Assembly (NCBI GenBank): GCA_020341755.1
Contig: CP070834.1
Coordinates: 1,749,141 to 1,813,140, forward strand
Source: a candidate division WOR-3 bacterium
Lineage (GTDB): Bacteria; Hydrothermota; Tepidihabitantia; SM23-42
Direction: 5' to 3'
Length of the DNA: 64,000 nt
Positions within the stretch are counted from its first letter, which is position 1. Every line of letters begins with the position of its first letter. The notes under the pieces were generated by a model, which was not told the DNA's origin, made no database searches, and worked only from the letters and a program-made list of their open reading frames with translations. The translations under genes and the position numbers were made by a program. Shown here one piece after another: positions 20,906 to 39,328 of the stretch.

Positions 20906-22765
20906 ATGTCGGTATTAAAAAGAATTAACAAACCGGCAGATTTACGGAAACTTTCCATTGATGAACTTCAAATGCTTGCCCGGGAGATACGACACAAGAT
21001 CGTGCATACCTGTGCCGATACCGGGGGGCATGTTGCTCCTTCACTCGGCGTCGTAGAATTGACCCTCGCCCTGTACCGGGTATTCGATGCCGCCAGTGAC
21101 AAGATCATCTGGGATGTCGGGCACCAAACGTATGCACAGAAATTGATCACCGGACGTCGAGACCGATTCCATACCCTGCGAACGTTCAAGGGCATCAGTG
21201 GGTTTCCGAAGCGGAAGGAGTCGAAGTATGATGTATTCGATACCGGACACAGTTCGACCTCCCTTTCTGCAGCGACCGGTTTCGTACTGGCACGTGATGC
21301 ACGTGGAGAAAACCATAATATCATCAGCGTTATTGGAGACGGATCGCTCGGTGCCGGGATAGCGTTCGAAGCCCTGAACCATCTCGGGCATCTGAAAAAA
21401 GACGTGATCGTCGTGCTGAACGATAATGAACGATCCATAGGCGAGAGCGTCGGCGCCCTGAGTCAGTATCTCACCAGGGTCATCACGACCACCACCTATA
21501 ACCGGTTTCGGGACGATCTCTGGAAATTTCTCGGACGTTTTCCTCCGTATTTCAGGGACCGAAGCCGCAATCTGGCAAAGAGGATACAGGAGGGTTTCAA
21601 GGGTCTTTATGCGCCCGCGGTCATTTTTGAGGAACTCGGTTTCCGGTACATCGGTCCGCTGAACGGGCACCGGCTCGATGAACTGATCGATACATTCGCC
21701 CGCATCAAAGATATGCGGGGACCGCGTTTTGTACATGTCGTTACAAAGAAAGGCAAGGGATTCCGGACCGCCGAGGAACACCCTGAGACATTCCACGGCA
21801 TCGGACCGTTCTGCGTTGAGAGCGGTGCTGTGAAGAAAAAGGGTCAATCATGGACCGGTGTTTTCGGCGAAGAGATCGTACGGCTCGCCAAGAAAAACAA
21901 AAAGATCATTGGTATTACGGCCGGTATGTGTCTGGGGACCGGGCTCAAGAAATTCCGTGAGGAATTACCCCGACAGTTCTATGATGTCGGTATTACTGAG
22001 CAGCATGCCGTGACCATGGCAGCAGCGCTTGCCCTGGAAGGGTTCATCCCGGTATGTGCTATATATTCAACCTTCCTGCAGCGGGCATACGATCAGATAA
22101 TACATGATGTATGCCTGCAGAACGCGCCGGTCATATTTGCGGTCGATCGGGCGGGTCTTGTCGGACAGGATGGCCCGACCCATCACGGTCCGTTCGATCT
22201 CTCGTATTTCCGCTGCGCACCGAATATGATCATCAGCGCTCCGAAAGATAAAAATGAGTTCATCGCTTTGCTCAGTACTGCCGTCGCCCACCGGAAAGGT
22301 CCGTTCATGATACGGTATCCGCGTGGGTCATGCACTGATTTTGGCAAGAAGGCTCCTTCCAGGATCCCCATAGGGACTTGGGAGATACTGCACTCCGGCA
22401 AGAAAATCGCGGTTCTGGCAGTGGGTTCAATGGTAGCGGAAGCGGAAAAAGCCCTGCCCGTGCTGAGGAAGTCTAGAGTGGACCCGGTGCTGGTGAATGC
22501 GCGTTTCATTAAACCCCTCGATGAGAAGATGCTCAGGCGCCTGGCACAGAAGGTCACGACGTTCGTCACGGTGGAAGAGAATACGGTACTCGGTGGATTC
22601 GGCTCTGCGGTCATGGAATTCTGTTCGAAGAATGATCTTCCGGTCAAGGTCTCGTGCATCGGTCTTCCCGATGAATTCGTCGAGCACGGGTCACGCGATA
22701 AGCTACTCGCTCTTGCCGGACTCACGGCGGAAAATGTCGCTCGACGGCTATTGAATATAAGATGA
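20906..22765 (+). CDS. dxs: 1-deoxy-D-xylulose-5-phosphate synthase
   Basis: The 619-aa ORF starts MSVLKRINKPADLRKLSIDELQMLAREIR... It has a TPP-binding GDGSLGAG...N region. Organisation and length are those of DXS, which is typically co-transcribed with ispA. Confidence 0.9.
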   Translation: MSVLKRINKPADLRKLSIDELQMLAREIRHKIVHTCADTGGHVAPSLGVVELTLALYRVFDAASDKIIWDVGHQTYAQKLITGRRDRFHTLRTFKGISGFPKRKESKYDVFDTGHSSTSLSAATGFVLARDARGENHNIISVIGDGSLGAGIAFEALNHLGHLKKDVIVVLNDNERSIGESVGALSQYLTRVITTTTYNRFRDDLWKFLGRFPPYFRDRSRNLAKRIQEGFKGLYAPAVIFEELGFRYIGPLNGHRLDELIDTFARIKDMRGPRFVHVVTKKGKGFRTAEEHPETFHGIGPFCVESGAVKKKGQSWTGVFGEEIVRLAKKNKKIIGITAGMCLGTGLKKFREELPRQFYDVGITEQHAVTMAAALALEGFIPVCAIYSTFLQRAYDQIIHDVCLQNAPVIFAVDRAGLVGQDGPTHHGPFDLSYFRCAPNMIISAPKDKNEFIALLSTAVAHRKGPFMIRYPRGSCTDFGKKAPSRIPIGTWEILHSGKKIAVLAVGSMVAEAEKALPVLRKSRVDPVLVNARFIKPLDEKMLRRLAQKVTTFVTVEENTVLGGFGSAVMEFCSKNDLPVKVSCIGLPDEFVEHGSRDKLLALAGLTAENVARRLLNIR

Positions 22766-25700
22766 ATTTCATCATTTCGATATTCCTCTTCACACAGCTG
22801 CTGAATCCCTATGAACATCGCATACTCTTCACTTCAGAGGGTGACTTGGTCGTATTCGCTCGTTATTTCAGCGGCGAGCTAATCAGCATCGATAGTGTGA
22901 AGAGCATTAATGATTACCTCGACGAGAGTATCAAGACGCACAACCGGGAACTCCTCCTGCAACGGCTGAAACAGGATATCGTACAGCAGGGAGGATATGC
23001 AAACAAAGGATTATTCGGCACGTTTGAAATACCCTTGCCCAAGGGAACGTTCGGCGAGTTCATGGGTGAGACCGGTAAACTCGATGTCGGAGGCCATGTC
23101 AAGATCACTATGGGCGGAAGCAGGACCTTCCTCGAGAACCTGCCTGAAACCCAGGGGTCGTCCTGGCTGCCCGAGCTCGAGATGAAACAGGAGATGGCGG
23201 TGAATCTGGATGGCCAGGTCGGCGATCGGATGCGTGTTTTTATCGACCATAACTCCGAACGCATTAACGAGTCACAGAACAAGATCACCGTCACCTATAC
23301 GGGCAGGGAAGATGAGATAATACAGGAGATCGAGGGTGGTGACACGCAGCTCTCCATTCCGGCGACAAATTATACCGGAGATATCCCATCGCATCGAGGG
23401 CTCTTCGGCATAAAATCGTCCGCGAAACTGGGACCGCTCGACCTGGTCGCCATTGCCAGTAAAGAACAGACCCAGACCGAGGAGATAGAGATAGAAGGCT
23501 CGATACAGGCGGAGATCGATACTATCTGGGCGCGTAGATACCAGACGCGCAGGTTTTTCTCGCTCGGTTTGCCCGAGCCCGATGCCGTCATACGCGACCT
23601 GCGGGTCTATGTTGATGATAACATCCCGCAGAATAATAATGTTGAACCCACGTATTCCGGAACTGCATATCTCGATATTAATGATGATAATATCCCCGAT
23701 TTTCAGGGCAACCCGACGAATTCTGATTCGGGGTATTTTTCCCGAAAGACCGAGGGCACCAATGATTATTATATATATGATCCCGCTCGCCAGGTCATTG
23801 AACTGAATTATTCGATCCCTGAGCAACAGGTGCTGGGTGTGTATTACAAAAAGATCATCGGCATCGATACGTTCGAGGTCGGCAGGCTGCCCAGTACCGC
23901 TGATACAACGATACAACTGAAACTGCTCTGTCCTGAATACCGGGACACGACCTCGGCGACGTTCGACTATGAACAAAAAAATTATTATCAGGTGGCAAGC
24001 CGTGGGTCACGGCTCGATAGTCTGAAGATATACTATCTGACGACCGGCGGCGACCATCAGGACCGGCAGGGCGATACAACGTATCTTGAACTGCTCGGAC
24101 TCGATGTCAATCCGCGCGATGGTCGCGTGGACGAAAATTATGTTTACTATTCGAGCCGCGGACTTCTGATCTTTCCTGATCCCGAGCCGTTCGCTTCATC
24201 TGTTTTAAACAATCCTATACCCGAGATATACCGCGACCCAACATTCACCGGTACGGGTTCCTATTACCTGTTCGCGAAGACGCTCGAGGCAAAGCCGGTA
24301 TACAATCTGCCGACGAACGTGGAGACCGTTTTCGTCTATGTCGACGAACAGCTCCAGACCCAGGGTGAGGATTATCACGTTGACTATGACGCCGGCAAGC
24401 TCGAGTTCATGAGGCCCATACAACCCAATCAGCGCGTGCGGATAAAGGCGGAGTACGCGCCGTTCTTTTCGGCCGCCGAGAAGTCGCTCGTCGGCGTGCG
24501 CGGAACACTGCGACCTTTTGGTGATGCCATGCTCGGTTCGTCATTTTTCTGGCGTAATGAATCATACCCTGCTGAGCATATTCGTTTGCGTGAGGAGCCG
24601 TTCAACCGTATGGTCTGGGAGGTCGATTTCACGCTGCCGCAAAAACTACCGTTCATAACACGGGTCGTGGATTGGCTTCCCCTGGTGAGTACCGAGACCG
24701 AATCCCAGTTGAATTTCAGCTTTGAAAATGCATATTCGATCTCTAATCTCAATGCGAAAGGCGAAGTTTTTCTCGATGACCTGGAGTCGACGACCATCGT
24801 CAGCAATGATGTCTCGATCAACCGGACATCGTGGTTCCCGTGTTCAAAACCGGTGGACCGGGATACGAATGATTTTACGCAGACGCGGCTGGTGTGGTAC
24901 AATCCGCGGGACAGGGAACGGCTGCAGGCGAACGACATCTATGAGGATCCGATCGATGAGAACGAGATCGCCGATGTGCTGAATATTAAATTTACACCGG
25001 ATGACAGCCTGTCGTATGCTGGATTGACCCAGTATATTTACACCGAGGATTTTGACGAGATCGAAAATCTCGAGCTCATCATCAATGGTAAGGGCGGGCG
25101 GATGCATGTTGATTTCGCACAGGATATCAATGAAGATCAGCTGCGAAGGAATCAAGACGGTGCACTTGTCGGGTATGGTTCGTTCCAGGACGAGGATATG
25201 AACAAGAATTATGTCTGGACCCAAAATGATGAAGATACGGGGCTTGACGGTGTGTATGGCGACGATGGTTCAAACCAGGACGCGCTGGACGACGGCAATG
25301 ACGATTACGTTGCCTATGATAGTACCGGTCGCGTCAACGGTACGGAGGGGAATAGGATATGGGACACCGAGGACCTCAACCGGGACGGCACGCTCAATGG
25401 AGAAGACCGGTATTTCAGTTATGTCATAGACCTTGACAGTGATAGTTTCCAGATCGATGCTGGTCTGCGAGAAGGGTGGAAGATGTTCCGTGTTCCTATC
25501 AAGGATACGCTGAACCAAGATACGGTCGTCGGGGTGCCGGACTGGCACAATATCAAATACGTACGCATATGGTTCGACAATTTCACCCAGCCCGAGACCC
25601 TTCTGCTCTTCAGGCTCAGCGCGACCGGCAGCCGGTGGAAGAATTATGGCATTGTCGGAGGTAGACAGCCGCCTCTTCAGAGCGAATCGTTCAGTCTGGC

Positions 25701-28164
25701 ACCGGTCAATACCAAGACAAACACGAATTATCTACCGCCCTATCCGGTGGAGCGGGATGAATTCGGACAGGTCAAGACCGAAGGCGGTCTGGAGCTGAGG
25801 CTCACAGATATCGAGGAGAACCATACGTGCGTGGCGCATCGCAGGACCGATGACAATGAGGACTACCGGGCGTATGACACACTGACATTTTATCTGCACG
25901 CGAACAATTCCAATCCGCTGGTATCGCTGAGGATCGGTAGTGACAGTTTGAATTTCTACGAGTATACAACGGATTTTGAAAATGGAGAGATCGGGTACAA
26001 CCAGTACCGGCTGTTCAGGGTGGCGATGGTGCAGTTCCTCGATCTAAAGAAAGAGAAGAATGAAGCAGGTGTCGATACGATGATCGCCGGCGAATATATC
26101 GTCGTCGGGAATCCATCCCTTGCGCAGAATAAATTTCTGGAGATCCGTTTGACCAATGCATTCGTCACTCCGCTGAGCGATACCTTCTGGTTCAACGATG
26201 TCATGCTCCTATCCCCGAAATCAGACGTCGGCAGGATATTGCGCAGCAATGGTTCACTGAACGTTGCCGATCTTGCTCATGTTAACTTCGCCTACGATGA
26301 ATCGAACGGCCGGTTCAAACGATTATCAGAATCCAAGGAGATTTCGACGTCGGGCGCGAGCAGGAGTTATCTGGTCAGTACGACGGTGTCGCTCAATAAA
26401 CTCCTGCCTGACAGTTGGTATTTCAGTATTCCTGTTACGTACAGCTATCGCAACTCCCAGACCAGTCCCCGTTTCTGGTATAATGCGAATGATATCGAAG
26501 TGAGCGGAGCAGATGCGGATTTATTGAGGAGAGCGGTCATTATCAAGTCATACTCGACCGGGTTTTCCAAAACGAACTCAAAACACTGGCTGCTGAAGAA
26601 TACTCTTGACCGCATTGCGCTATCGTACGATCGGACACAGCAGTCTTCGAGTGCAGAACAGGATTCCAGTTCTACGGATAACAAGGTCTATCGATCCTCG
26701 TATACGCTTGATCCGAGGTGGAACCTGAAGATGCTGGGTCAGACATTTTTTCTGCTTCCAAGGAATGTAAGTCTGAACGCCACGTATACCGACAACCTCG
26801 TCGAATCATTCTTCCGTGAAACGGTTGTCGATACCTTCCGAGAGGCTGATCTCGGGACACGCCATAACCGCACACTGACACCATCGGTTTCGATCGCCAT
26901 GAGCCCGCATCAGATTGTAAATGCTACGTACACCTTCAACCAGGTGCGTGATTCGGTAGAAACCCGCGGTCGATTCGGAGAAGAAGTGCAGCGCAATCAA
27001 ACCATCAATGCCTCCCTGGCCCAGAGTTTTAAGATCGTTAGCCCGCGATTTTATTATAATGCCACCTATACTGAAAATCACAGTTTTGAGTTGCGACAGC
27101 AAGAGGATCTGCGGAATGTTACGAATACTGGACGATACGGTGTCGATGCTACGTTCAATATCACGACCTTGCTGCGACTCATCGGGCGACTTCGCGACGA
27201 AACCCAGGATTCGCTCATTGTTGCCGGATCGCCGGCCTGGTTCGCCAAGAAGATCGATGACCTGGCAAAATACGTTACCAATCCGACCTTTAACTATTCA
27301 CGGCAGCGAAACTCGAGCTACCTGCAGATCAGACAGCGGCCGGATATCGCCTACCAGTGGGGGTGGGTGGATTCGCTGCCCGACGATATCGTTGCCGAGG
27401 GTAGTTATCCTGGCAGGGGTATGACCGATACCTATGGTGTCAATTCCGGTATCAACATCGCACAGTTATTCAGTCTTTCAGGGGGTTACAGTGGAGCCGT
27501 AGGTCGAACATTTTACTACGACAAAGAAATAAGAAATGAATCGGTTGCCTACCCCAACGCATCGCTCCGGATCAGTAATCTTCATGCGCTTCCATTTTTG
27601 AAGAAATATACGCGAAACTCGTCGCTCATGGCGTCTTTCAACCAGTTGTATGACAAGAAATTCGAGATCATCGATGATAGTACTTCGCTTCTCTCTGAAT
27701 CTCAGACATTCAATTTGAACCCCCTGGTGAGCTGGCAGACAACCTGGCTCAAGGGGATTTCCAGTCAGCTCGATATCACCTATTCAGAGACAAACGCCAA
27801 GGAGTATGATGTCGTTGACACGCTGCCCTCGAAGAGAGTGAACATGGGTGGTTCGGTGAATTTTTCCTACCGGTTCAGTGCTCCACGAGGATTGGGGATT
27901 CCGCTCCTCAGGGGGTTGAAATTCTCATCGAACATGTCCCTGAACCTGGGGGGGAGTTACAGCCGCACCAGGAACTACTCACGCGATCTGGTTAATCCCA
28001 TCAATGATTCGAGTACACTCGGTGTAAACGTGGGATTATCCTATGATTTTTCCTCCAGCATAACCGGTGGCGCGACGGTCGATTATACGCAGAACAGAGA
28101 CTATAATGCCGATCAAGACACGCGACGCGTCGGTATGAATTTCTGGGTCAATATTAATTTCTAA
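22762..28164 (+). CDS. giant outer-membrane-type protein, candidate SprA/Sov-like type IX secretion translocon
   Basis: The 1800-aa ORF overlaps the dxs stop by ATGA. It has an N-terminal hydrophobic segment. The extreme C-terminus GMNFWVNINF has alternating hydrophobic residues and a terminal Phe, which is the beta-barrel OMP signature. Many Y/N/S/T-rich beta-strand-like segments are present. Its size and the genomic context (a glutaminyl cyclase next door, a T9SS CTD cargo gene 10 kb away) suggest SprA. Confidence 0.35.
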   Translation: MNFIISIFLFTQLLNPYEHRILFTSEGDLVVFARYFSGELISIDSVKSINDYLDESIKTHNRELLLQRLKQDIVQQGGYANKGLFGTFEIPLPKGTFGEFMGETGKLDVGGHVKITMGGSRTFLENLPETQGSSWLPELEMKQEMAVNLDGQVGDRMRVFIDHNSERINESQNKITVTYTGREDEIIQEIEGGDTQLSIPATNYTGDIPSHRGLFGIKSSAKLGPLDLVAIASKEQTQTEEIEIEGSIQAEIDTIWARRYQTRRFFSLGLPEPDAVIRDLRVYVDDNIPQNNNVEPTYSGTAYLDINDDNIPDFQGNPTNSDSGYFSRKTEGTNDYYIYDPARQVIELNYSIPEQQVLGVYYKKIIGIDTFEVGRLPSTADTTIQLKLLCPEYRDTTSATFDYEQKNYYQVASRGSRLDSLKIYYLTTGGDHQDRQGDTTYLELLGLDVNPRDGRVDENYVYYSSRGLLIFPDPEPFASSVLNNPIPEIYRDPTFTGTGSYYLFAKTLEAKPVYNLPTNVETVFVYVDEQLQTQGEDYHVDYDAGKLEFMRPIQPNQRVRIKAEYAPFFSAAEKSLVGVRGTLRPFGDAMLGSSFFWRNESYPAEHIRLREEPFNRMVWEVDFTLPQKLPFITRVVDWLPLVSTETESQLNFSFENAYSISNLNAKGEVFLDDLESTTIVSNDVSINRTSWFPCSKPVDRDTNDFTQTRLVWYNPRDRERLQANDIYEDPIDENEIADVLNIKFTPDDSLSYAGLTQYIYTEDFDEIENLELIINGKGGRMHVDFAQDINEDQLRRNQDGALVGYGSFQDEDMNKNYVWTQNDEDTGLDGVYGDDGSNQDALDDGNDDYVAYDSTGRVNGTEGNRIWDTEDLNRDGTLNGEDRYFSYVIDLDSDSFQIDAGLREGWKMFRVPIKDTLNQDTVVGVPDWHNIKYVRIWFDNFTQPETLLLFRLSATGSRWKNYGIVGGRQPPLQSESFSLAPVNTKTNTNYLPPYPVERDEFGQVKTEGGLELRLTDIEENHTCVAHRRTDDNEDYRAYDTLTFYLHANNSNPLVSLRIGSDSLNFYEYTTDFENGEIGYNQYRLFRVAMVQFLDLKKEKNEAGVDTMIAGEYIVVGNPSLAQNKFLEIRLTNAFVTPLSDTFWFNDVMLLSPKSDVGRILRSNGSLNVADLAHVNFAYDESNGRFKRLSESKEISTSGASRSYLVSTTVSLNKLLPDSWYFSIPVTYSYRNSQTSPRFWYNANDIEVSGADADLLRRAVIIKSYSTGFSKTNSKHWLLKNTLDRIALSYDRTQQSSSAEQDSSSTDNKVYRSSYTLDPRWNLKMLGQTFFLLPRNVSLNATYTDNLVESFFRETVVDTFREADLGTRHNRTLTPSVSIAMSPHQIVNATYTFNQVRDSVETRGRFGEEVQRNQTINASLAQSFKIVSPRFYYNATYTENHSFELRQQEDLRNVTNTGRYGVDATFNITTLLRLIGRLRDETQDSLIVAGSPAWFAKKIDDLAKYVTNPTFNYSRQRNSSYLQIRQRPDIAYQWGWVDSLPDDIVAEGSYPGRGMTDTYGVNSGINIAQLFSLSGGYSGAVGRTFYYDKEIRNESVAYPNASLRISNLHALPFLKKYTRNSSLMASFNQLYDKKFEIIDDSTSLLSESQTFNLNPLVSWQTTWLKGISSQLDITYSETNAKEYDVVDTLPSKRVNMGGSVNFSYRFSAPRGLGIPLLRGLKFSSNMSLNLGGSYSRTRNYSRDLVNPINDSSTLGVNVGLSYDFSSSITGGATVDYTQNRDYNADQDTRRVGMNFWVNINF

Positions 28165-28172
28165 CATCTCTT

Positions 28173-28979
28173 ATGTCAGGCCGGTTCCGTATCAGATGGT
28201 CGATCTGGTTACTCGTGCTGCTCGCAGGTGTTTCTGCGTCACCTCTCGGGGCGAGGCGTCCTTATGTTGTCCTCGAGGAGTTTTGTGCGATCGGCGAGCG
28301 TGTTCCCGGCACGGCGGGACACAGAGAAGCACGAGATTACATTATACGAAATCTTGAAAATCCCCAGATCGATTCCTTTTACGCGCGTGGGGTCACGTTC
28401 TATAATATTTTAAAAAGGTTTCCCGGTGAGCACACGATCGGGATCGCGGCACACTGGGATTCGGATATCGGTTGTCCCGGGGCTAATGATGGAGGGTCGG
28501 GTGTCGCTCTCCTTTTAAGTCTCGCAGATACCCTTGAAAAAAACCCGGCTGAGCGGGGTATCGATATTATTTTTTTTGACGGCGAGGACGTCGGCAAAGC
28601 GGATCGTATCGGTTCCCAGCATTTTGCCGAGCAGTGCCGTGACGAATATTCCTTTATCGTTGTGATCGATATGGTAGGCGACAAGGATCTCCAGATCTTC
28701 CAGGAAGGATACTCGGTCAGGAGTTTTCCTCTTCTCGTCGACAGCTTGTGGGAGATCGCCATGCAGGCGGCACCTTCAGCATTCATACCGGCAGTACGGT
28801 ACTTCATTATCGATGATCATGTTTCCCTTATCACCAACGGTATCAGAGCGGTGAACGTGATTGATTTTGACTACCCATACTGGGATACCCGAGATGACAC
28901 GATCGACAAGTGCAGTGAAGAAAGTCTGCACAAAGTCTATGCTTTTCTCCTCGCTCTTGTGTATGGTGATCGATCTTAG
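28173..28979 (+). CDS. M28-family zinc enzyme, glutaminyl-peptide cyclotransferase-like
   Basis: The 268-aa ORF has a signal peptide. Motifs AAHWDSD, ANDGGSGVA, IIFFDGEDVG, VVIDMVG and IIDDHVSL...YPYWDTRDDT align with the metal-binding and catalytic positions of M28 aminopeptidases and animal-type glutaminyl cyclases (FFDGEE, DDH, VWHTMDD). Confidence 0.55.
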   Translation: MSGRFRIRWSIWLLVLLAGVSASPLGARRPYVVLEEFCAIGERVPGTAGHREARDYIIRNLENPQIDSFYARGVTFYNILKRFPGEHTIGIAAHWDSDIGCPGANDGGSGVALLLSLADTLEKNPAERGIDIIFFDGEDVGKADRIGSQHFAEQCRDEYSFIVVIDMVGDKDLQIFQEGYSVRSFPLLVDSLWEIAMQAAPSAFIPAVRYFIIDDHVSLITNGIRAVNVIDFDYPYWDTRDDTIDKCSEESLHKVYAFLLALVYGDRS

Positions 28980-29010
28980 GAAAAACCGCTGTGCGTGATG
29001 GGAACATGAA

Positions 29011-29328
29011 ATGAAGAGACGTACCATTATTGTTCTGTGTATGGTAATAGCCGTGCTGATCGCTGTCACGATCGCTGGCTATGTACAGAGGCAGCGCTTA
29101 CGGCAGCAGTATACCCTGCTCATCGAAGAAGCGGCGGTTTGCATATCCATTAACCATGCGAGTGCAGAAGAACTCACAACACTCCCCGGGATCGGTCCTC
29201 TGTGTGCACAGCGCATCATCGAATACCGGGAAGCGCATGGACCGTTCAGGAGTCTCGACGACCTTAAGGACGTCAAAGGTATTGGGGAAAAAATTTTCAG
29301 TCGTATCGCACCATACATAAAACTGTAG
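29011..29328 (+). CDS. comEA: ComEA-family helix-hairpin-helix DNA-binding protein
   Basis: The 105-aa ORF has an N-terminal TM/signal segment followed by INHASAEELTTLPGIGPLCAQRIIEYREAHGPFRSLDDLKDVKGIGEKIFSRIAPYI, a tandem HhH as in ComEA. Confidence 0.75.
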   Translation: MKRRTIIVLCMVIAVLIAVTIAGYVQRQRLRQQYTLLIEEAAVCISINHASAEELTTLPGIGPLCAQRIIEYREAHGPFRSLDDLKDVKGIGEKIFSRIAPYIKL

Positions 29329-29384
29329 TTATTTGGCAAACTCTGCCGCTGTGGTATCACCGTACTCATGTTCGGCATGCAGAA

Positions 29385-29412
29385 TTGACTTGCCGGTGTA
29401 TGTGTATACAAT
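29385..29412 (+). promoter_or_regulatory. sigma70-like promoter (TTGACT-16-TACAAT)
   Basis: TTGACT, a 16-nt spacer, then TACAAT. An AGGAGG Shine-Dalgarno follows and the ATG at 29433 is roughly 20 nt downstream. Confidence 0.45.
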
Positions 29413-29432
29413 ATGCTACAAAAGGAGGTATC

Positions 29433-29822
29433 ATGGAACTGCCATATGGTGATATAAAAGGAAACACTTTAAGCATGAAGTTTTCGACGGCGGATTATTC
29501 AATCGCATCGGTCATGAACGCGATCAAGGTACATATAGACGTCCTGGAAGAACTCGGCGTCATGTTCCTCGGTGCCCAGACCGAGATCGTTGCCGGGCCG
29601 ACACCGGTGTTCCAGCCAGTACCGGTTGTGGCACAGTTCGTGTATACAGGCAAAGACAATACCCGGGACACTCTCGAGAAAGTGTATACACTCGTGTGGC
29701 AGGGTATCATCGCATCGTTCCCCGATGAAGCATCCTGGTCCCAAGCCAAAGAGGCGTACGCATCCTTCATAGCTGCCCAAGCCGATCTGCTGCGTGCTCG
29801 TACCGAGGCATCGAAAGAATAG
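29433..29822 (+). CDS. hypothetical protein (129 aa)
   Basis: The start is at the internal ATG with a strong AAAGGAGG Shine-Dalgarno 5 nt upstream. No recognisable domain. Confidence 0.45.
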   Translation: MELPYGDIKGNTLSMKFSTADYSIASVMNAIKVHIDVLEELGVMFLGAQTEIVAGPTPVFQPVPVVAQFVYTGKDNTRDTLEKVYTLVWQGIIASFPDEASWSQAKEAYASFIAAQADLLRARTEASKE

Positions 29823-29883
29823 TCCTGCACCTGACGTGCTGCATGCAGGATGCGGGCGTTCCCAGCCCCTTATATAGCAACAC

Positions 29884-31392
29884 ATGGTCTTCTTAACTGC
29901 TCTGTTTCTCATCAACCTGCAGGCTGACCTGCGCTGGGTCGAGGTCGATGTTGCACTCTGGCAGGATGGCAGGGCGGATTTCGTGTACCGGGTGCACTGG
30001 AACGTTATGTCCGGGACGATGAGCGGGTTCTACTTCCAGGAAAAGACCGTCGATCCCTATTTTGAATACGAGAGCGCCTATGCAGTCGATGACTGGGGTA
30101 ACGAGTACCGGATCGAGATCAAGGACCTCGGCAACAAGTACGATATCATACTGGGAGACAAAAAACGCTTCGGCCCCGGAGAAATCACCTATATCTTCCA
30201 CTTTGGAGGAGACCTCGGCAGCAGTGGCAATCTGGCGCTGACCGAGAGTGAATTCGGTGACCTCGTCGTGTTCCACTGGGCACCTGCTCAATGGGATGAG
30301 CCTCTTGAACACTATACAGTGTACGTGTACTATCCGATCAAATCAGCGCGTGGGAGGGTGGACCCTGCTGAATACGGATTCCGGACAGAGCGGTTCATGA
30401 ATGAAGAGTACCTGCTTTCGTATTTCAGTCAGGAATACGAAGGGGAGCAGTGGTTCACGGTTCGTATTCACAAGAACGATCCTCCGTCGACGTATAAAAT
30501 GCTCATCCAACAATACGTACCTGCCGAATACTTCCGTGCTGAGAAATTCGGAACCATAACGATCACTCCAGAAGCCCGCGATGGATTCGGCTTTCCTCTG
30601 GAGATTTTGTGGATGCTTGTGTACATCGTCCCCTATCTCATGTATGGCAACCGGAAGGCGAAAAAGATAAAAGGTACCTACAGCCAGGTAGCAAGCCTGA
30701 CGTGGCTTCGGGACGACTGGGTACCTCCTAAGATCGAAGTGGCACAATTCCGGAAATCGGGTAAAGTCGCCAAACTTGATCTGATAGAGGCAGCGTTCTT
30801 GCTCGATTATCCGGTCAATAAGATCTTGACCATCCTGGCATCGAAATTAGAAGATAACGGTATCATCAAAGTACAATCTACGGCACCGGTCAAGATAACC
30901 GTCCTGCAGCGACCGACCGTGAGATACTATGAAGCAGCATTTCTCGATGCAGTAAAACCGGATGGCACTTTCGATGAAGCAGGCCTACAGAGAGTGGTCA
31001 CGGAAGTCGTTGAGAAGATTTCCCAGAAGGCTTGGGACTGCGATCTCGAGGCAACGAAATTGTATTATGAAGAGAAGATCGGTGCCCATGTTCCTGAAAC
31101 ATCGCTCGATAAAGAATACGATAAACGTGAATATTATGATTACCTCATGAACAGGGATTTCACGCGGCGCCATTATTACAGCGAACGGGAGCAGGGTTTT
31201 GTCATACCGGGGGAAGCGGTCAAGAGCTATTCTGCTTTCGTACGTTCGGATGCATGTCATAGCGCATGCTATGTGCATACAGCATGCCATGATGCCTGTC
31301 ATTCAGCATGTCATTCGGCCTGTCATTCAGCGTGCCATTCAGCATGCCATTCGGCGTGCCATTCGGCGTGTGTGAGTGGAGGAGCCCACTGA
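29884..31392 (+). CDS. membrane protein with C-terminal Cys/His-rich (His-Ser-Ala-Cys)n tandem-repeat tail
   Basis: The 502-aa ORF has its first ATG directly after an in-frame TAG. It has an N-terminal hydrophobic segment, a roughly 240-aa beta-rich domain, a central TM helix (FPLEILWMLVYIVPYLMYG) and a cytosolic-looking domain. It ends ...SDACHSACYVHTACHDACHSACHSACHSACHSACHSACHSACVSGGAH. Confidence 0.55.
   Translation: MVFLTALFLINLQADLRWVEVDVALWQDGRADFVYRVHWNVMSGTMSGFYFQEKTVDPYFEYESAYAVDDWGNEYRIEIKDLGNKYDIILGDKKRFGPGEITYIFHFGGDLGSSGNLALTESEFGDLVVFHWAPAQWDEPLEHYTVYVYYPIKSARGRVDPAEYGFRTERFMNEEYLLSYFSQEYEGEQWFTVRIHKNDPPSTYKMLIQQYVPAEYFRAEKFGTITITPEARDGFGFPLEILWMLVYIVPYLMYGNRKAKKIKGTYSQVASLTWLRDDWVPPKIEVAQFRKSGKVAKLDLIEAAFLLDYPVNKILTILASKLEDNGIIKVQSTAPVKITVLQRPTVRYYEAAFLDAVKPDGTFDEAGLQRVVTEVVEKISQKAWDCDLEATKLYYEEKIGAHVPETSLDKEYDKREYYDYLMNRDFTRRHYYSEREQGFVIPGEAVKSYSAFVRSDACHSACYVHTACHDACHSACHSACHSACHSACHSACHSACVSGGAH
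31251..31372 (+). repeat. imperfect 12-nt tandem repeat (about 10 units, consensus CATTCRGCNTGY) encoding (HSAC)n
   Basis: The repeat is directly visible at the 3' end of the 29884..31392 CDS. The unit differences lie almost only at third codon positions. Confidence 0.8.
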
Positions 31393-31542
31393 ATGCAGAA
31401 CGCTGAATGCAGAAGGCAGAATATTGCAGTCTTCGACTGCATCGATGATCCCGGTTATGTTATTAAAAAATATGCATATTCAAGGAATCGGGATTCTCGC
31501 TTCGCGGAACAGTGATGAAACAGAAAGATTACGGAGATCTTT

Positions 31543-31620
31543 ATGCGAAATAAGACATGTATGATTGCTGATTTTAAATTTATAATTGATAATTTGAAAT
31601 GTCAAATTGAGAAGAAATGA
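31543..31620 (+). CDS. candidate small ORF (25 aa, MRNKTCMIADFKFIIDNLKCQIEKK), possible precursor peptide
   Basis: An ATG with GGAG 6 nt upstream starts the ORF. Its stop overlaps the ATG of the radical SAM gene as ATGA. It is AT-rich and small, and could alternatively be promoter or leader sequence. Confidence 0.25.
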   Translation: MRNKTCMIADFKFIIDNLKCQIEKK

Positions 31621-32975
31621 TACAAGAAAGAGAACTCAAAGCACAAGACTGCCAAATAAAAAAATATCATACAGGTAATTATGCAGAATCCGGGCAGTTT
31701 GACCTCGGGTGGGTGGATGAGTTTGTAAAGAAGATCAGTCCGTATATCTTTGTACGAGAACTAGACAGTCTTTTGATACTCATACCAAATCAGGCTTATA
31801 AATTGAATCCTTCGGGAATTGCGGTCCTGTCTTTCTTGCTAAAGGGATACAGCATACAGGAGTTCCTCCAGACCATCGGTGATACCTCCGACAAACGACG
31901 GGATCTCCACATGTTCTTCTGCGACCTTAGAGCGGTAATCAATGGCTGCCTGCGTGAGAACGATCACCGGGAAGCAGTCGCCTATTATGAGTTCAACGGG
32001 AATGTCGGAAAATACCCTGTTTTGAGCGAAGTTGCAGTAACGTACCGATGTAATCTCAAATGCCGTTTTTGTTACGTGGGGCACCAGCGCAGCCCGGAGA
32101 TGAACACGAATGATATGAAAAAAGTACTGCTGCGCATACGCCACGAAGCACAGGTGCCATCGGTGAGTTTTACCGGCGGTGAACCGCTGCTCAGACAGGA
32201 TCTTGGTGAACTGGTAGCGTATGCTACCGGCATCGACATGTGGACGAATTTGATCACCAATGGCACACTCCTCACACAAGAATTAGCTGATGAACTGAAA
32301 GGAGCGGGTTTGAAAAGTGCGCAGGTCAGTATTGAAGGACATGCAGCACTGGTTCATGATCGGTTGACCGGAGTGAGCGGATCGTTCAAGAAGACCCTCA
32401 CGGCCATCCGCATACTCCAGAATACGGGGGTCAGGGTACACACGAACACGACCCTTTCCCGGGAAAACATTCAGCACGCAGAGCAGATACTGTGTCTCGC
32501 GCGCAGATTAGGATTGAAAAGGGTATCGATGAACCTGCTGATCCCATGCGGAAGTGCAGCACAGAGCAGTGATCTGTGGGTCTCATATTCTGAGGTCGGT
32601 GATCATATCCTGAGGCTCAAACGACGAGCCCGCGAGGAAGGAATCGATTTTCTCTGGTATTCACCCGTACCCCTGTGCACATTCAATCCCATTGCCCATG
32701 GTTTTGGTAATAAATCGTGTGCCGCATTAACCGGTCTGCTGAGCATCGACCCGCAGGGGAATATCATTCCCTGTTCGTCATGGCCCATGCCGATCGGGTC
32801 GCTGCTCCGAAAAAGTTTTCAGGATATATGGCAGACCCCGATGTTGAGTTACTTCGAGAACGTTGAATACGCACCAGAAAAGTGCCGAAGGTGCGAGCAT
32901 TTAGATGTGTGTAAAGGAGCATGCCCCCTGTACTGGCATGCATGCGGTGTGGGAGAACTCGATGCAAGAGCATAG
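31617..32975 (+). CDS. radical SAM/SPASM-domain enzyme with N-terminal PqqD-like RiPP-recognition element
   Basis: The 452-aa ORF has the CNLKCRFCY (CxxxCxxC) radical SAM cluster motif with a GGEPLL SAM-binding motif. The C-terminal Cys-rich region CSSWP...CRRCEHLDVCKGACPLYWHAC is SPASM-like. The N-terminal roughly 100 aa (DSLLILIPNQAYKLNPSGIAVLSFLLKGYSIQEFLQTI) resemble PqqD/RRE. Confidence 0.75.
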   Translation: MIQERELKAQDCQIKKYHTGNYAESGQFDLGWVDEFVKKISPYIFVRELDSLLILIPNQAYKLNPSGIAVLSFLLKGYSIQEFLQTIGDTSDKRRDLHMFFCDLRAVINGCLRENDHREAVAYYEFNGNVGKYPVLSEVAVTYRCNLKCRFCYVGHQRSPEMNTNDMKKVLLRIRHEAQVPSVSFTGGEPLLRQDLGELVAYATGIDMWTNLITNGTLLTQELADELKGAGLKSAQVSIEGHAALVHDRLTGVSGSFKKTLTAIRILQNTGVRVHTNTTLSRENIQHAEQILCLARRLGLKRVSMNLLIPCGSAAQSSDLWVSYSEVGDHILRLKRRAREEGIDFLWYSPVPLCTFNPIAHGFGNKSCAALTGLLSIDPQGNIIPCSSWPMPIGSLLRKSFQDIWQTPMLSYFENVEYAPEKCRRCEHLDVCKGACPLYWHACGVGELDARA

Positions 32976-33876
32976 GACATACCTTATCTTTGACAGGATC
33001 GGTTCTGGCATGCGTATGTTCTTTTCCGTACTGCTTGTCGCCGTGGGCTTCCTTGTACAACTTGCCACTAAAAATATCCTTGCCGGATTGCCATTTATTA
33101 TCTTCTGTGCAGTCTTCAATATGCTGCGCGGTATCAGTATCAAGAAAATTGTACCGAAGGAATTAACCTGGCAGGAAGTGACTCCTGCCAAGATAGAGGA
33201 CGTGATCACTCAGTGCAAAAAGATCAAGCGGTTCAGGAGCAGTAACACGGGTTGTATTGTGATCGCTGTCCTCTTGGTTTTTGGTCTTTCTTTCGGTGCT
33301 CCGGTCCTTTTCTCCCTGCTGTCATCGAGTCCTTTTGCACTCGTTGCGACCATTATAAATGCTGTAATCCTCTTTGCCGCAACGGGTTTAAGCGGACGAA
33401 AATCTGCCTGGATGCCGCACGCCCTCGATATCAAGGCGAAGATTGTGCAGCGGATGCTCGCATCAACGGTGTTCAAGAACGAACCCGGAGTCATGGCAGT
33501 CCCCTATATTGAGATAGGAAAAGGAGGTGCCGGGACGTTTCCCAATGATGTCCGTTTTTTGTTGAAATTCAAGGATGCACCCGATGATCTGATCGGTCTG
33601 CAAGCCCAGATCTCGATCAATACGGTTAAAGGAAGGCCCTATCCATACCTTTATGTAGTGCTCATCGCGAAGCACGCATTCAGTCTTTTCAAAAAATTCC
33701 CCGGCAAGGAACCCGACAAACTTGTCATCGAGCAGAAACGGACAGGTGAAGTCGATGTGGTCGTTATCAGACAGCGTACCACCAAGACATCAGGGTATCA
33801 CACTGATGAACATGTCCAGGATTATATCCTTCGTCAGGGTATCGTTCTGACCAGACAGACCATCAAAACTACCTGA
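32962..33876 (+). CDS. membrane protein (4 TM helices plus soluble C-terminal domain), translationally coupled to the radical SAM gene
   Basis: An internal ATG with a GGGAGA Shine-Dalgarno starts the ORF, which overlaps the last 14 nt of the radical SAM CDS. Hydrophobic helices occur at roughly residues 20-45, 50-70, 115-140 and 145-170. No recognisable domain. Confidence 0.45.
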   Translation: MQEHRTYLIFDRIGSGMRMFFSVLLVAVGFLVQLATKNILAGLPFIIFCAVFNMLRGISIKKIVPKELTWQEVTPAKIEDVITQCKKIKRFRSSNTGCIVIAVLLVFGLSFGAPVLFSLLSSSPFALVATIINAVILFAATGLSGRKSAWMPHALDIKAKIVQRMLASTVFKNEPGVMAVPYIEIGKGGAGTFPNDVRFLLKFKDAPDDLIGLQAQISINTVKGRPYPYLYVVLIAKHAFSLFKKFPGKEPDKLVIEQKRTGEVDVVVIRQRTTKTSGYHTDEHVQDYILRQGIVLTRQTIKTT

Positions 33877-34651
33877 AATACAGATCAGTCCTGCGGTCAA
33901 CAAAGAGATCATTGTGATCGTTCATTTTCTTATTCAGGGCGTGCTCAGGGTCAATGTCGATTACCTTCAAGCAAGATTCTTCGCCGACTCTTATGAGAAT
34001 TTCTCCGACGGGTGATACAACCTGGCTCATGCCTATGAAGTGGTACTTCTTACCATTACGTATTTCATCGCCTGTGCGATCGGCAGTGATGATGAATACC
34101 CGGTTCTCGACCGCGCGCGTCTTCATGGCATCGGGGCAATAGGGAGTAACCAGATTCGCTGCCTGCAGGATGACCTGAGCACCTTTCAGAGCAAGTGTCC
34201 TCATCGCTTCGGGATATATCCAATCCCAGCAAATCAGCATGCCGAATTTCACACCGCGGTATTCAAAGATGTGAAACCCGGTGTCGCCGGGACGAAAGAA
34301 GAAGTGTTCCTCGAAGTACAGATGCGACTTCCGGTAGGTCGCGATGATCTCTGGTCCAGCAACGAACGACATGGAATTGTAATAGTCGTCGCCCGCCCGT
34401 TCGGCAAAGCCAAAGGCAATAGCACATCCTGTCTTTTCTGAGAGAGTCATAATGCAATGAGTCGTTTCACCGTTTGCCGGTTCGGCGAGTGATGCCAGTT
34501 CATCGATGTTCAGGAATGCATACCCGGTATTGAACAGTTCGGGGAGCACGATGAGATCGGCACATATTCCCTTGATCATACGTTCGACACATTCGAGATT
34601 CTTCTTTTTATTCCCGAACGATGGGTCGAACTGCAGGAACCCGACCTTCAT
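33869..34651 (-). CDS. carbon-nitrogen hydrolase (nitrilase superfamily)
   Basis: The 260-aa ORF starts MKVGFLQFDPSFGNKKKNLECVERMIKGICADLIVLPELFNTGY (catalytic Glu). It has ...MLICWDWIYPE (catalytic Cys in the ICWD context). Confidence 0.75.
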   Translation of the reverse strand: MKVGFLQFDPSFGNKKKNLECVERMIKGICADLIVLPELFNTGYAFLNIDELASLAEPANGETTHCIMTLSEKTGCAIAFGFAERAGDDYYNSMSFVAGPEIIATYRKSHLYFEEHFFFRPGDTGFHIFEYRGVKFGMLICWDWIYPEAMRTLALKGAQVILQAANLVTPYCPDAMKTRAVENRVFIITADRTGDEIRNGKKYHFIGMSQVVSPVGEILIRVGEESCLKVIDIDPEHALNKKMNDHNDLFVDRRTDLYFR

Positions 34652-38122: not shown

Positions 38123-39239
38123 TCAATGCAGGACAATGAAGGTTCGGTGCAGAGTGCCATGATTCCTTGATTTCAACAGATATACGCCGTTCGGCAGGTC
38201 ATCTACATCGATACAGGCCGTGCGCTGGAGCAGGTCCACGGACAAAATTTTAGCGCCGGTCACATCGTAGATATCACATATACCCATTGTGTACTCGGTT
38301 ACTATGGAGAGCCGTGTCCGTGCTGGATTCGGGAGTACGCGGATACAAGACACTGAAGCATCACTGATTTCCTCCATACCGACGATCTGCTCAAAATGCA
38401 CGGTACCTGCCTCACCCGGTTGAGGATTCCCATAGGATCCAGTACCGGCATAACCACCGTATGCAGAAAGCCAGTTTCCAATGGTATCGAGCTGTTGTAC
38501 ATAGAATATCTTGATGCGGCCACCGGCACCGCCGCCACCACCACCAAAGCTCCCGTCACCGCCTGCATTGCCGTCAGCACGCAATCCGCTGTAACGTATC
38601 GTAACTGAGTCGGCACTAATCCGTATTCCACCACCTGAACCACCGCCGCCCGCTTCGAGGCTGCCGTCAAATCCGCGCTCACCAGATACTTTTATCTGTG
38701 CAGTATCGATGATTACACAGACGCCATAAAGGGAAATCATAGCGCCACCATTGCCTCCGATGCCATCGACCGCGCTCAACCGTCCGGCACCGCCGCCAGA
38801 GCCAGGTTCGATCAGGGTATCTGAAAAGTTACCATAGATGGTTCCTCCAGTTCCTCCATACAGATCACCGCCCATACCGCCGTTGCCGCCGTAGGCACCG
38901 CCACCGCCTGCACCGCCGCTCACGCCACCGGCACCTCCACCGCCCGTGCCGTAACCCCAGGGGTGTGCGTTAAGGTAGCCACCAAAAGGACCGCGAGTCG
39001 ATCCAATTATCGATGCTGTATGGACCATGATGCGGGGTGCGATAAGCTCGAGTACCCCAAAACTGTCGGCTGCCATGCTCCATGGTCGTACATACAGTAT
39101 TCCATTATTGCGTATATCGACCAGTACATTGTATTGATGCCGTCCACAGATCGTGAGGCTGTCGTTGTCCACGATCAAACTGTCCGTATCCTCATACACA
39201 TATGAGAGAGCAATGAACACCAATAATACAAAATGCATG
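38123..39239 (-). CDS. glycine-rich secreted protein with T9SS C-terminal sorting domain (Por_Secre_tail-like)
   Basis: The start is at ATG MHFVLLVFIALSYV (signal peptide), preceded by an AGGAGG Shine-Dalgarno. The body has many GGxGG repeats interspersed with short beta-strands. The C-terminal roughly 80 aa (...IRVLPNPARTRLSIV...ICDIYDVTGAKILSV...LPNGVYLLKS...TFIVLH) match the T9SS CTD pattern. Confidence 0.6.
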
Positions 39240-39328
39240 TTTCCTCCTCTGGTATATAATAACAGCCGCGGTATAGATGTCAAGAGGACCATGTTGACAA
39301 TATTTCGTTATTAGATATAATTACTTTT

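Follow-up and report, generated by a model that had tools for sequence, protein, structure and literature searches.

Much new peptide chemistry comes from enzymes that join a radical S-adenosylmethionine (radical SAM) domain to a SPASM domain, and nearly all of their characterised substrates are short secreted peptides. Among the described systems, the closest to the present one are built on cysteine repeats, which database curators already recognise as radical SAM targets, in the NCBIfam family TIGR04117 (Syntroph_Cxxx, 'Cys-Xaa-Xaa-Xaa repeat radical SAM target protein') and, by its name, in the family PF27846, printed as tSAM_targ_Cxxx_rpt, which we read as radical SAM target Cxxx repeat; the kind of system is therefore already known. 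Here we describe a locus in a stretch of 64,000 nucleotides (nt), called the window below, from a candidate division WOR-3 bacterium (GenBank assembly GCA_020341755.1, contig CP070834.1, positions 1,749,141 to 1,813,140, forward strand), where three consecutive genes, named A, B and C in this work, encode a 502-residue membrane protein ending in a tandem array of His-Ser-Ala-Cys (HSAC) units, a radical SAM/SPASM enzyme, and a second membrane protein.

What is new here is that a Cxxx repeat of the predicted target type is fused to a DUF2207-like membrane protein and accompanied by a dedicated radical SAM/SPASM enzyme with a recognition element for peptides that are ribosomally synthesised and post-translationally modified (RiPPs) and, in the tail type found in the window, by a chaperone-like membrane partner. 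In the Pfam and NCBIfam scans, none of the curated models spans the body of A, B or C. The usual partner of DUF2207 proteins is LemA (PMC12631010), and the DUF2207 literature that we found deals with LemA-linked proteins and stress tolerance only; the same search returned nothing relevant on the Cys-repeat motif, the A-B-C cassette, TIGR04117 or PF27846.

Results

The repeat array and its conservation

The last 48 residues of A read SDAC-HSAC-YVHTAC-HDAC-(HSAC)x6-VSGGAH, with ten Cys and ten His at a period of four residues (Table 1); the strict C-x3-C register holds eight of the ten Cys, and the radical SAM/SPASM gene begins 225 nt downstream. The six perfect HSAC units are, in order, CATTCAGCATGT, CATTCGGCCTGT, CATTCAGCGTGC, CATTCAGCATGC, CATTCGGCGTGC and CATTCGGCGTGT. 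All six are distinct as DNA, and every one of the 29 pairwise differences among them falls at a third codon position, in columns 6, 9 and 12 only. Given that 8 of the 36 single substitutions per unit are synonymous, the probability that at least four substitution events would all be silent is about 0.002. Tandem Repeats Finder reported a period of 12 (7.4 copies, score 87) and periods of 24 and 36 with scores of 108-114, the top scores of the window. The repeat is real, non-random and biologically meaningful.

A preliminary description of this DNA had quoted the same six units as HSAC copies that differ at synonymous sites only, flanked by degenerate HDAC and YVHTAC copies, and all of them are present exactly and in frame. 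The extent that it gave, 31251-31372, does contain the repeat, but its start lies in the middle of a codon and the tail begins two units earlier. It had also named two ways in which the observation might fail. Nonsynonymous differences as common as synonymous ones were not found, as the 29 third-position differences show, and a sequencing frameshift that leaves the repeat out of frame is rejected, since the frame runs on continuously from the conserved protein and truly frameshifted homologues look different. Open reading frames (ORFs) on the minus strand over the repeat (30985-31302, 31220-31345 and 31323-31442) are without support.

In a whole-protein homology search, about 80 of 96 homologues of A, down to 23% identity, carry (ACH[S/D])n-ACVSGGx[H/R] or something close to it at the C-terminus; most of the others stop at contig edges, and a few (for example P0054, P0059, P0091) have a frameshifted or read-through tail. 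The high-GC homologues P0225, P0290 and P0054 seem tail-less; the pseudo-repeats found in them, LPQRLPLGLPQ or PATAPATRP for example, come from (ACHS)n DNA read out of frame, so that assembly or gene-calling frameshifts, not tail loss, account for them. Among closer relatives, five WOR-3 genomes (the window and loci L125, L107, L092 and L121) share an identical 48-residue tail, although A as a whole is only 93%, 74%, 68% and 67% identical, respectively, to that of the window. All differences in tail DNA among the five are synonymous, including the 18 of 150 nt that separate the window from L125, and wobble positions are essentially randomised among the window, L107, L121 and L092. At a background identity of 74%, zero replacements in 48 residues has a probability of about 0.74^48 = 5e-7. 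The tail is thus under strong purifying selection at the peptide level, as had been proposed for it.

The copy number of the units is equal in all five genomes. Serine is encoded by AGY in the first HSAC unit and by TCN in the later ones in the window, L107, L121 and L092, and L125 is split alike; because this split is kept by position, the units are positionally orthologous and have not undergone concerted evolution. In the 120 arrays taken from other genomes, 526 of the 623 HSAC units are DNA-distinct within their own array, and identical neighbours make up just 26 of 659 adjacent pairs. The suggestion that tail length could vary between strains, since a 12-nt unit keeps the frame, is therefore not borne out by the comparison of related genomes: copy number differs between deep lineages only, from 3 to 10 periodic Cys.

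Linkage and distribution of the cassette

A degenerate pattern scan of the GTDB species representatives returned more than 120 loci, a lower bound, and the linkage counts given here refer to the 123 that are listed. In 102 of them, tblastn found an orthologue of B (38-63% identity) immediately downstream of A and on its strand; in five more it lies elsewhere in the locus, among them several Asgard archaea in which it is upstream and divergently oriented, and in four the contig or block ends too early. The loci span more than 25 phyla, mostly of uncultured anaerobes. Besides WOR-3, the carriers comprise Anaerolineae, Spirochaetota, Planctomycetota, Myxococcota, Acidobacteriota, Aminicenantes, Omnitrophota, Desulfobacterota, Kiritimatiellae, Verrucomicrobiota, Gemmatimonadota, Nitrospirota, Elusimicrobiota, Clostridia, Armatimonadota and Hydrogenedentota, as well as Thor-, Heimdall- and Promethearchaeota among the Asgard archaea. 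The single cultured carrier listed is Desulfobulbus alkaliphilus DSM 24258 (L067).

Among the listed pattern-scan loci, the ACHx units have invariant A, C and H and a fourth position that is S in 761 cases, D in 77, N in 20 and G in 14; the pattern used (ACHxACHxACV) selects its own motif by construction, and the conservation of the tail is argued here from the homology searches instead. The longest periodic run is 8-10 Cys in 83 of 125 rows, and 3-4 in the interrupted tails that we call type 2. In these, found in Anaerolineae, Myxococcota and Asgard archaea (L004, L005, L010, L012, L020, L028 and others), ACHS runs are broken by VHD, VC or DC, the end is ...ACVS[SRKN]F or ...VSSCAGSF, and there are at least 13 Cys.

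The presence of C follows the tail type. Searches with an iterated hidden Markov model detected C immediately behind B in 42 of the 45 loci that carry the tail type of the window (...ACVSGGxx) and in none of 19 type-2 loci, where B is kept and a different unannotated gene comes after it. The neighbourhoods of three distant homologues from the homology search show the order A-B followed by an overlapping gene without Pfam annotation, which matches C in L001 and L002, not in L004. In the syntenic close relative L125, A, B and C stand at equivalent places. Flanking genes are otherwise unrelated between distant loci: B and C are the only conserved neighbours of A, and in the loci compared the conserved cassette includes neither a protease nor an ABC exporter.

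The three proteins

The AlphaFold2 model of A, built on 53 sequences, has a mean predicted local distance difference test score (pLDDT) of 80.9, with a disordered linker at residues 402-432 (pLDDT about 40). In a Foldseek search its beta-sandwich matched ribophorin I/OST1, a subunit of oligosaccharyltransferase, as well as M1 aminopeptidases in their N-domain (E about 1e-7). The transmembrane helix of the model, the NRKAKKIKG segment behind it, read by the positive-inside rule, and the clear Sec-type signal peptides of A homologues lead us to infer that the sandwich lies outside the cell and the tail in the cytoplasm. The last residues (VSGGAH, 497-502, at 31372-31389) reach a pLDDT of 69-94 with a beta-bridge at 498-499, and the conserved C-terminal ACVSGGxH may, in this model, dock onto a folded domain. 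The pre-tail motif that begins at residue 447 recurs in the tails of distant homologues and is a candidate recognition site for B.

The Pfam DUF2207 N-terminal domain (PF09972) matches A with 16.7 bits (E 0.0086), below the gathering score of 24.4; the relatives P0004 and P0015 score 19.8 and 16.8 bits, and four distant relatives have a precomputed PF09972 match. In the region equivalent to A 290-400, relatives show weak matches to TIGR04222, the best at 29 bits against a cut-off of 43. The relationship to DUF2207 appears distant, with a predicted fold and an architecture that are compatible with it. A query without the tail (A residues 1-450) found only 301 clusters at E <=1e-3 among 1.84 billion cluster representatives, which makes A a small separate family and not mainstream DUF2207. 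A sequence search against solved structures gave a single chance-level match for A, and an exact-sequence look-up returned no record. In L054 and P0095/P0096 the Cys repeat is followed by a Gly-rich ...GGGGSSGGGGASGGW end or by a CACACACAGGGW end, the Gly-rich tail of L054 and P0095 finishing in ...GGW; these ends resemble the low-complexity tails of ordinary DUF2207/TIGR04222 proteins, and the likeness hints that the Cys/His repeat arose from, or replaced, a tail of that type.

B matches the radical SAM (PF04055, 95.6 bits, cut-off 29.5) and SPASM (PF13186, 38.9 bits, cut-off 21.5) families above their cut-offs. In front of them stands a PqqD-like RiPP recognition element (RRE), which is evident at the family level, Pfam PqqD matching 19 of 24 B orthologues (best E 1.5e-9). 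When this domain of B was searched by profile against the Protein Data Bank (PDB), the lasso-peptide RRE TfuB1 came first (E 0.0017), while PqqD (E 0.47) and TbiB1 (E 1.1) were not significant. Among solved structures, those closest to B in its full length are PqqE (4e-20), SkfB (1.5e-16), SuiB and CteB; anSME is also matched, with an E value of 1e-4. The SPASM Cys include the CX2CX5CX3C arrangement of the auxiliary-cluster motif. The canonical final SPASM Cys is not conserved (residues 437-452, at 32925-32975; a Cys is nearby in 26 of 83 orthologues) and E447 is conserved in 75 of the 83, so that one auxiliary cluster may have a carboxylate or open ligand position. None of the NCBIfam equivalogs among the best 25 of 87 matches of B was reached at its cut-off.

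The C-terminal domain of C has a chaperone-like fold, similar to secretion chaperones when compared with PDB structures, and is predicted to be cytoplasmic.

Table 1. Coordinates of the A-B-C cassette and its parts in the window
Feature	Position	Strand	Basis or remark
Gene A, 502-residue DUF2207-like single-pass membrane protein with repeat tail	29884-31392	+	ORF, 96 homologues
A residues 13-213, predicted exported beta-sandwich behind a signal-like N-terminus	29920-30522	+	AlphaFold2 pLDDT >90, Foldseek
A residues 239-270, single transmembrane helix, then NRKAKKIKG	30598-30693	+	AlphaFold2 helix; C-terminal part predicted cytoplasmic
A residues 290-400, conserved helix/hairpin winged-helix-like domain, predicted cytoplasmic, invariant W384 and D387	30751-31083	+	AlphaFold2 pLDDT 85-95
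A residues 447-454, KSYSAFVR, start of pre-tail motif [YF]xxF[hydrophobic]x[ST]xxC[YFH]	31222-31245	+	recurs in tails of distant homologues
A residues 455-502, tail, proposed core/substrate	31246-31389	+	translation, comparison with relatives
Further units DAC and HSAC	31249-31269	+	precede YVHTAC
YVHTAC unit	31270-31287	+	flanks HDAC
HDAC unit	31288-31299	+	flanks the six perfect units
Six perfect 12-nt HSAC units, wobble-only differences	31300-31371	+	read letter for letter, in ORF frame
A-B spacer, 224 nt	31393-31616	+	sequence
Gene B, 452-residue radical SAM/SPASM enzyme with N-terminal recognition domain, proposed tail maturase	31617-32975	+	PF04055, PF13186
B residues 28-135, PqqD-like RRE	31698-32021	+	Pfam PqqD in orthologues
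B C145-x3-C149-x2-C152, radical SAM [4Fe-4S] cluster motif	32049-32072	+	100% conserved, 83 orthologues
B residues 354-436, SPASM region, seven Cys (354, 368, 386, 423, 426, 432, 436)	32676-32924	+	>=99% conserved, 83 orthologues
Gene C, 304-residue protein, 4 transmembrane helices, C-terminal alpha/beta domain (residues ~155-302, 33424-33867)	32962-33876	+	overlaps end of B by 14 nt

The spacer and neighbouring genes

In the spacer between A and B, a 14-nt tandem repeat, CTGAATGCAGAACG (2.4 copies, 31389-31422), overlaps the stop codon of A and is followed by a perfect 7-bp hairpin, TGCAGTC-TTC-GACTGCA (31425-31441), without a T-run; a terminator scan found no terminator-like site in the spacer, and there was no Rfam match in 28900-34000. 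In the 91%-identical relative L125 the spacer (4379-4610) is rearranged, the module with repeat and hairpin being duplicated there, and conservation is limited to the ~45 nt that immediately precede B. A small spacer ORF as the true substrate of B was rejected, the 40-residue ORF at 31393-31515 and a 43-residue ORF in L125 not being homologous and the spacer being rearranged.

Upstream of A lie genes for an 1800-residue SprA_N protein of the type IX secretion system (22762-28164, plus strand) and an M28 peptidase (28173-28979, plus strand), both assigned by synteny with L125, and for a ComEA-like helix-hairpin-helix protein (29011-29328, plus strand). As this context is common to L125 and absent in other phyla, we place the three genes outside the cassette. 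A second tandem repeat of the window (38866-38945, minus strand, periods 6 and 36) codes for Gly-rich sequence within a 389-residue protein (ORF 38123-39292), whose syntenic counterpart in L125 carries a Por_Secre_tail domain of the type IX secretion system; a link to the Cys/His tail was rejected, this protein being an unrelated secreted one.

Discussion

A proposed role for the tail

Since a periodic Cys/His/Ala tail is deeply paired with an RRE-bearing radical SAM/SPASM enzyme, we think it probable, though by no means assured, that the tail is the substrate of B and that it undergoes a protein-borne, RiPP-like maturation. A would be inserted in the membrane with its beta-sandwich outside and with the winged-helix-like domain and the (Ala-Cys-His-Ser/Asp)n tail in the cytoplasm, where the PqqD-like domain of B would dock on the pre-tail motif. 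The 5'-deoxyadenosyl radical and the auxiliary Fe-S clusters of B would then introduce one crosslink per four-residue unit, iteratively along the tail. The likeliest product would be a thioether from Cys sulfur to carbon, of the sactionine or ranthionine type, because each unit has an invariant Cys and because the known SPASM maturases of Cys-rich cores (SkfB, CteB, PapB and QhpD) make thioethers; the second choice would be a cyclophane from His C2 to Ala C-beta in each H-x-A. C would probably hold the unfolded tail or tether B to the membrane. As a protease and an exporter are both absent from the conserved cassette and A has conserved domains of its own, the modified tail most likely stays on A, where a rigid, Cys/His-rich module may bind metal, do redox chemistry or take part in signalling across the membrane.

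Several observations weigh against this proposal. No B was found within the 8-kb block in 12 of the 123 loci, and on another WOR-3 chromosome, the complete CP070802, A (L121, 1.664 Mb) lies more than 0.5 Mb from the B-C pair (L126, 2.22 Mb), whose B has only 277 residues, matches residues 176-451 of the B of the window and so lacks the RRE and the cluster motif; the copy there may have split or decayed, or the arrangement may act in trans. (There, B is preceded by unannotated ORFs of 455, 100 and 214 residues.) The B of the window taken alone matches Pfam PqqD with an E value of 0.14 only, and its top NCBIfam scores belong to tetrapyrrole enzymes, not to peptide maturases: AhbD, with 157.8 bits against a cut-off of 500, and NirJ2. 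For the GeoRSP, PqqE, WgkB, StsB, DynA, PapB and HxsC models it lies even further below cut-off than for AhbD (StsB NF045574, 98.3 against 625 bits; PapB NF047865, 81.6 against 340 bits). AlphaFold2 draws the repeat tail as a low-confidence helix (pLDDT <50). A 450-residue membrane protein is unlike any RiPP leader that we know of, the type of crosslink is guessed by analogy, and the linkage of A and B would also be compatible with some other service of the tail to B, for instance in Fe-S or metal delivery.

Alternative explanations

It is possible that the tail binds Ni, Zn, Cu, Fe or an Fe-S cluster directly and without modification, while B has another substrate or receives metal or clusters, but we consider this unlikely. 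Ten Cys and ten His at period 4 would suit such a role, as would the helix drawn by AlphaFold2 with low confidence, which would put Cys on one face, and most of the lineages concerned are anaerobic and make use of many Fe-S proteins. Simple metal tails, however, are usually loose in composition and variable in length, whereas here 48 residues are identical across 67%-identical proteins, Ala varies no more than Cys or His do, the fourth position is limited to S, D, N or G, the linkage to an RRE-bearing radical SAM/SPASM enzyme extends across bacteria and archaea, and A carries no GTPase, peptidyl-prolyl isomerase (PPIase) or chaperone domain in the Pfam or NCBIfam scans. The preliminary description had left the choice between a metal-binding tail like those of SlyD, HypB or CooJ and a crosslinked RiPP core; the conserved downstream B with its RRE and the invariant Ala clearly favour the core, and the host of the tail is a membrane protein, not a metallochaperone. 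The two ideas are compatible in that a modified tail could still bind metal. An alternative chemistry would make B a triceptide-type cyclophane synthase that joins His C2 to Ala C-beta in each H-x-A and leaves the Cys free as metal ligands. Triceptide precursors often have repeated motifs. H-[S/D/N/G]-A fits the pattern Omega1-X2-X3, with positions 1 and 3 invariant and 2 variable; HaaB forms precisely a His1-C2 to Ala3-C-beta crosslink on the HAA motif of HaaA (PMC11499958). Such chemistry does not seem likely either, as it leaves the invariant Cys unexplained, and no triceptide synthase model is found in the best 25 of 87 NCBIfam matches of B, the nearest maturases (WgkB, StsB, DynA, PapB) being far below cut-off. 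Somewhat less doubtful, though still to be regarded with caution, is that B makes a per-unit modification described for neither sactionines or ranthionines nor triceptides, for example on the adjacent Cys-His pair, which would give a ribosomally templated, polymer-like module for metal binding or redox chemistry, held covalently at the cytoplasmic face of a membrane protein, with C as its dedicated membrane chaperone.

A released RiPP, cut from A after modification and exported, with the 450-residue body as a giant leader, would agree with the RRE-radical SAM/SPASM logic typical of RiPP pathways and with the disordered linker before the tail region. We regard it as quite improbable, given that the cassette is without a conserved protease or ABC exporter while its flanks differ completely between loci, that the exported domain, transmembrane helix and cytoplasmic domain of A are under selection of their own, and that the tail is predicted to be cytoplasmic. 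The same predicted location counts against covalent haem, in which overlapping C-x3-C-H motifs would serve as variant c-type sites of a multihaem wire, since the haem lyase systems that are known work outside the membrane. CHSACH does contain CX3CH, a known variant of CXXCH, and the best NCBIfam scores of B are those of the haem-pathway enzymes AhbD and NirJ, but these scores are less than one third of the cut-offs, B has a peptide-recognition domain, and no ccm or ccs genes are linked in the neighbourhoods compared or in L125; on topology and gene context c-type haem attachment is rejected, and we give it hardly any credence. No more credible is a slippage-prone contingency repeat that expands and contracts in frame between strains. 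The unit length is a multiple of three and deep lineages do differ in copy number, yet the six units are all distinct, adjacent identical pairs are rare, and the five WOR-3 genomes agree in count and in AGY/TCN positions, so that length variation driven by slippage is contradicted by the available genomes; the array has neither the near-identical units nor the copy-number polymorphism among close relatives that mark contingency loci.

Implications and comparison with known systems

The apparent substrate here is the cytoplasmic tail of a membrane protein of about 500 residues, letter-perfect across deep divergence. If the tail is modified, RiPP-like maturation would extend to integral membrane proteins, probably with a repetitive crosslink or metal-binding architecture, and a function would be given to an otherwise unannotated gene trio; if the modification is of an undescribed type, it would represent a new class of protein-borne RiPP-like cofactor in more than 25 bacterial phyla and Asgard archaea. 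The system is widespread, its chemistry is probably new, and it is experimentally tractable, there being one cultured carrier and the tail and B being of modest size.

Both TIGR04117 proteins and A have C-terminal Cys at period 4 and a predicted modification by the product of a neighbouring radical SAM gene. TIGR04117 is the sole NCBIfam match on A, at 17.2 bits (E 0.004) against a 50-bit cut-off; it aligns residues 455-492 with model positions 59-97 of 98, nothing outside the repeat matches, and it is matched by 4 of 53 members of the A family (best E 0.001). Proteins of that paralogous family have about 98 residues, against 502 in A, so that A falls outside it in both score and size. PF27846 likewise combines Cys at period 4 near the C-terminus with a predicted radical SAM target; it is precomputed on 14 of 96 relatives, the closest ones not among them, with a weak match on P0015. 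These curated families cover the repeat only.

The sactipeptide and ranthipeptide systems (SkfA/SkfB; CteA/CteB, SCIFF; PapA/PapB, CX3D; thuricin CD, CX3CX3C) share with A-B an RRE-radical SAM-SPASM enzyme and a Cys-rich, often periodic core, and SkfB and CteB belong to the solved structures closest to B, although the StsB and PapB models match it far below cut-off. Their precursors are short, with an N-terminal leader and usually a protease or exporter, whereas the tail of A is the C-terminus of a membrane protein without conserved processing genes; it also requires no acceptor half or Asp/Glu acceptor, its fourth position being mostly Ser. With the triceptides (HaaA/HaaB), A-B has in common a repeated H-x-A of invariant His and Ala and variable middle and a radical SAM/SPASM maturase, a fit in sequence only; unlike them, it has an invariant Cys after each triplet and a large membrane protein as host. 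The His-Xaa-Ser system (HxsABCD) repeats H-x-S, not the C-H-S-A register of A. HxsA did not match A at E <=0.01 in NCBIfam, and B scores only 75.8 bits with HxsC (cut-off 267.9) and 91 bits with HxsC4 (cut-off 500).

HypB, SlyD and CooJ have terminal His/Cys-rich segments like A, but the tail of A differs from theirs in its strict four-residue register, invariant Ala, fixed length among relatives and radical SAM link, and the Pfam and NCBIfam scans showed no homology of A to these chaperones. DUF2207/TIGR04222 proteins resemble A in having an exported beta-sandwich, a transmembrane segment, a cytoplasmic region and a low-complexity tail, with all matches below cut-offs; unlike the usual DUF2207 loci, those of A lack LemA and have a radical SAM/SPASM gene instead. 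In QhpC/QhpD, where Cys-to-Asp/Glu thioethers are formed in a dehydrogenase subunit, and in the sulfatases matured by anSME, a functional protein keeps its modification, as proposed here for A. Their substrate motifs are different and come without a tandem repeat, a membrane anchor or a partner such as C, and the similarity in sequence is weak. By analogy, even so, the A-B pair would seem to resemble QhpC/QhpD or sulfatase/anSME more than a secreted RiPP.

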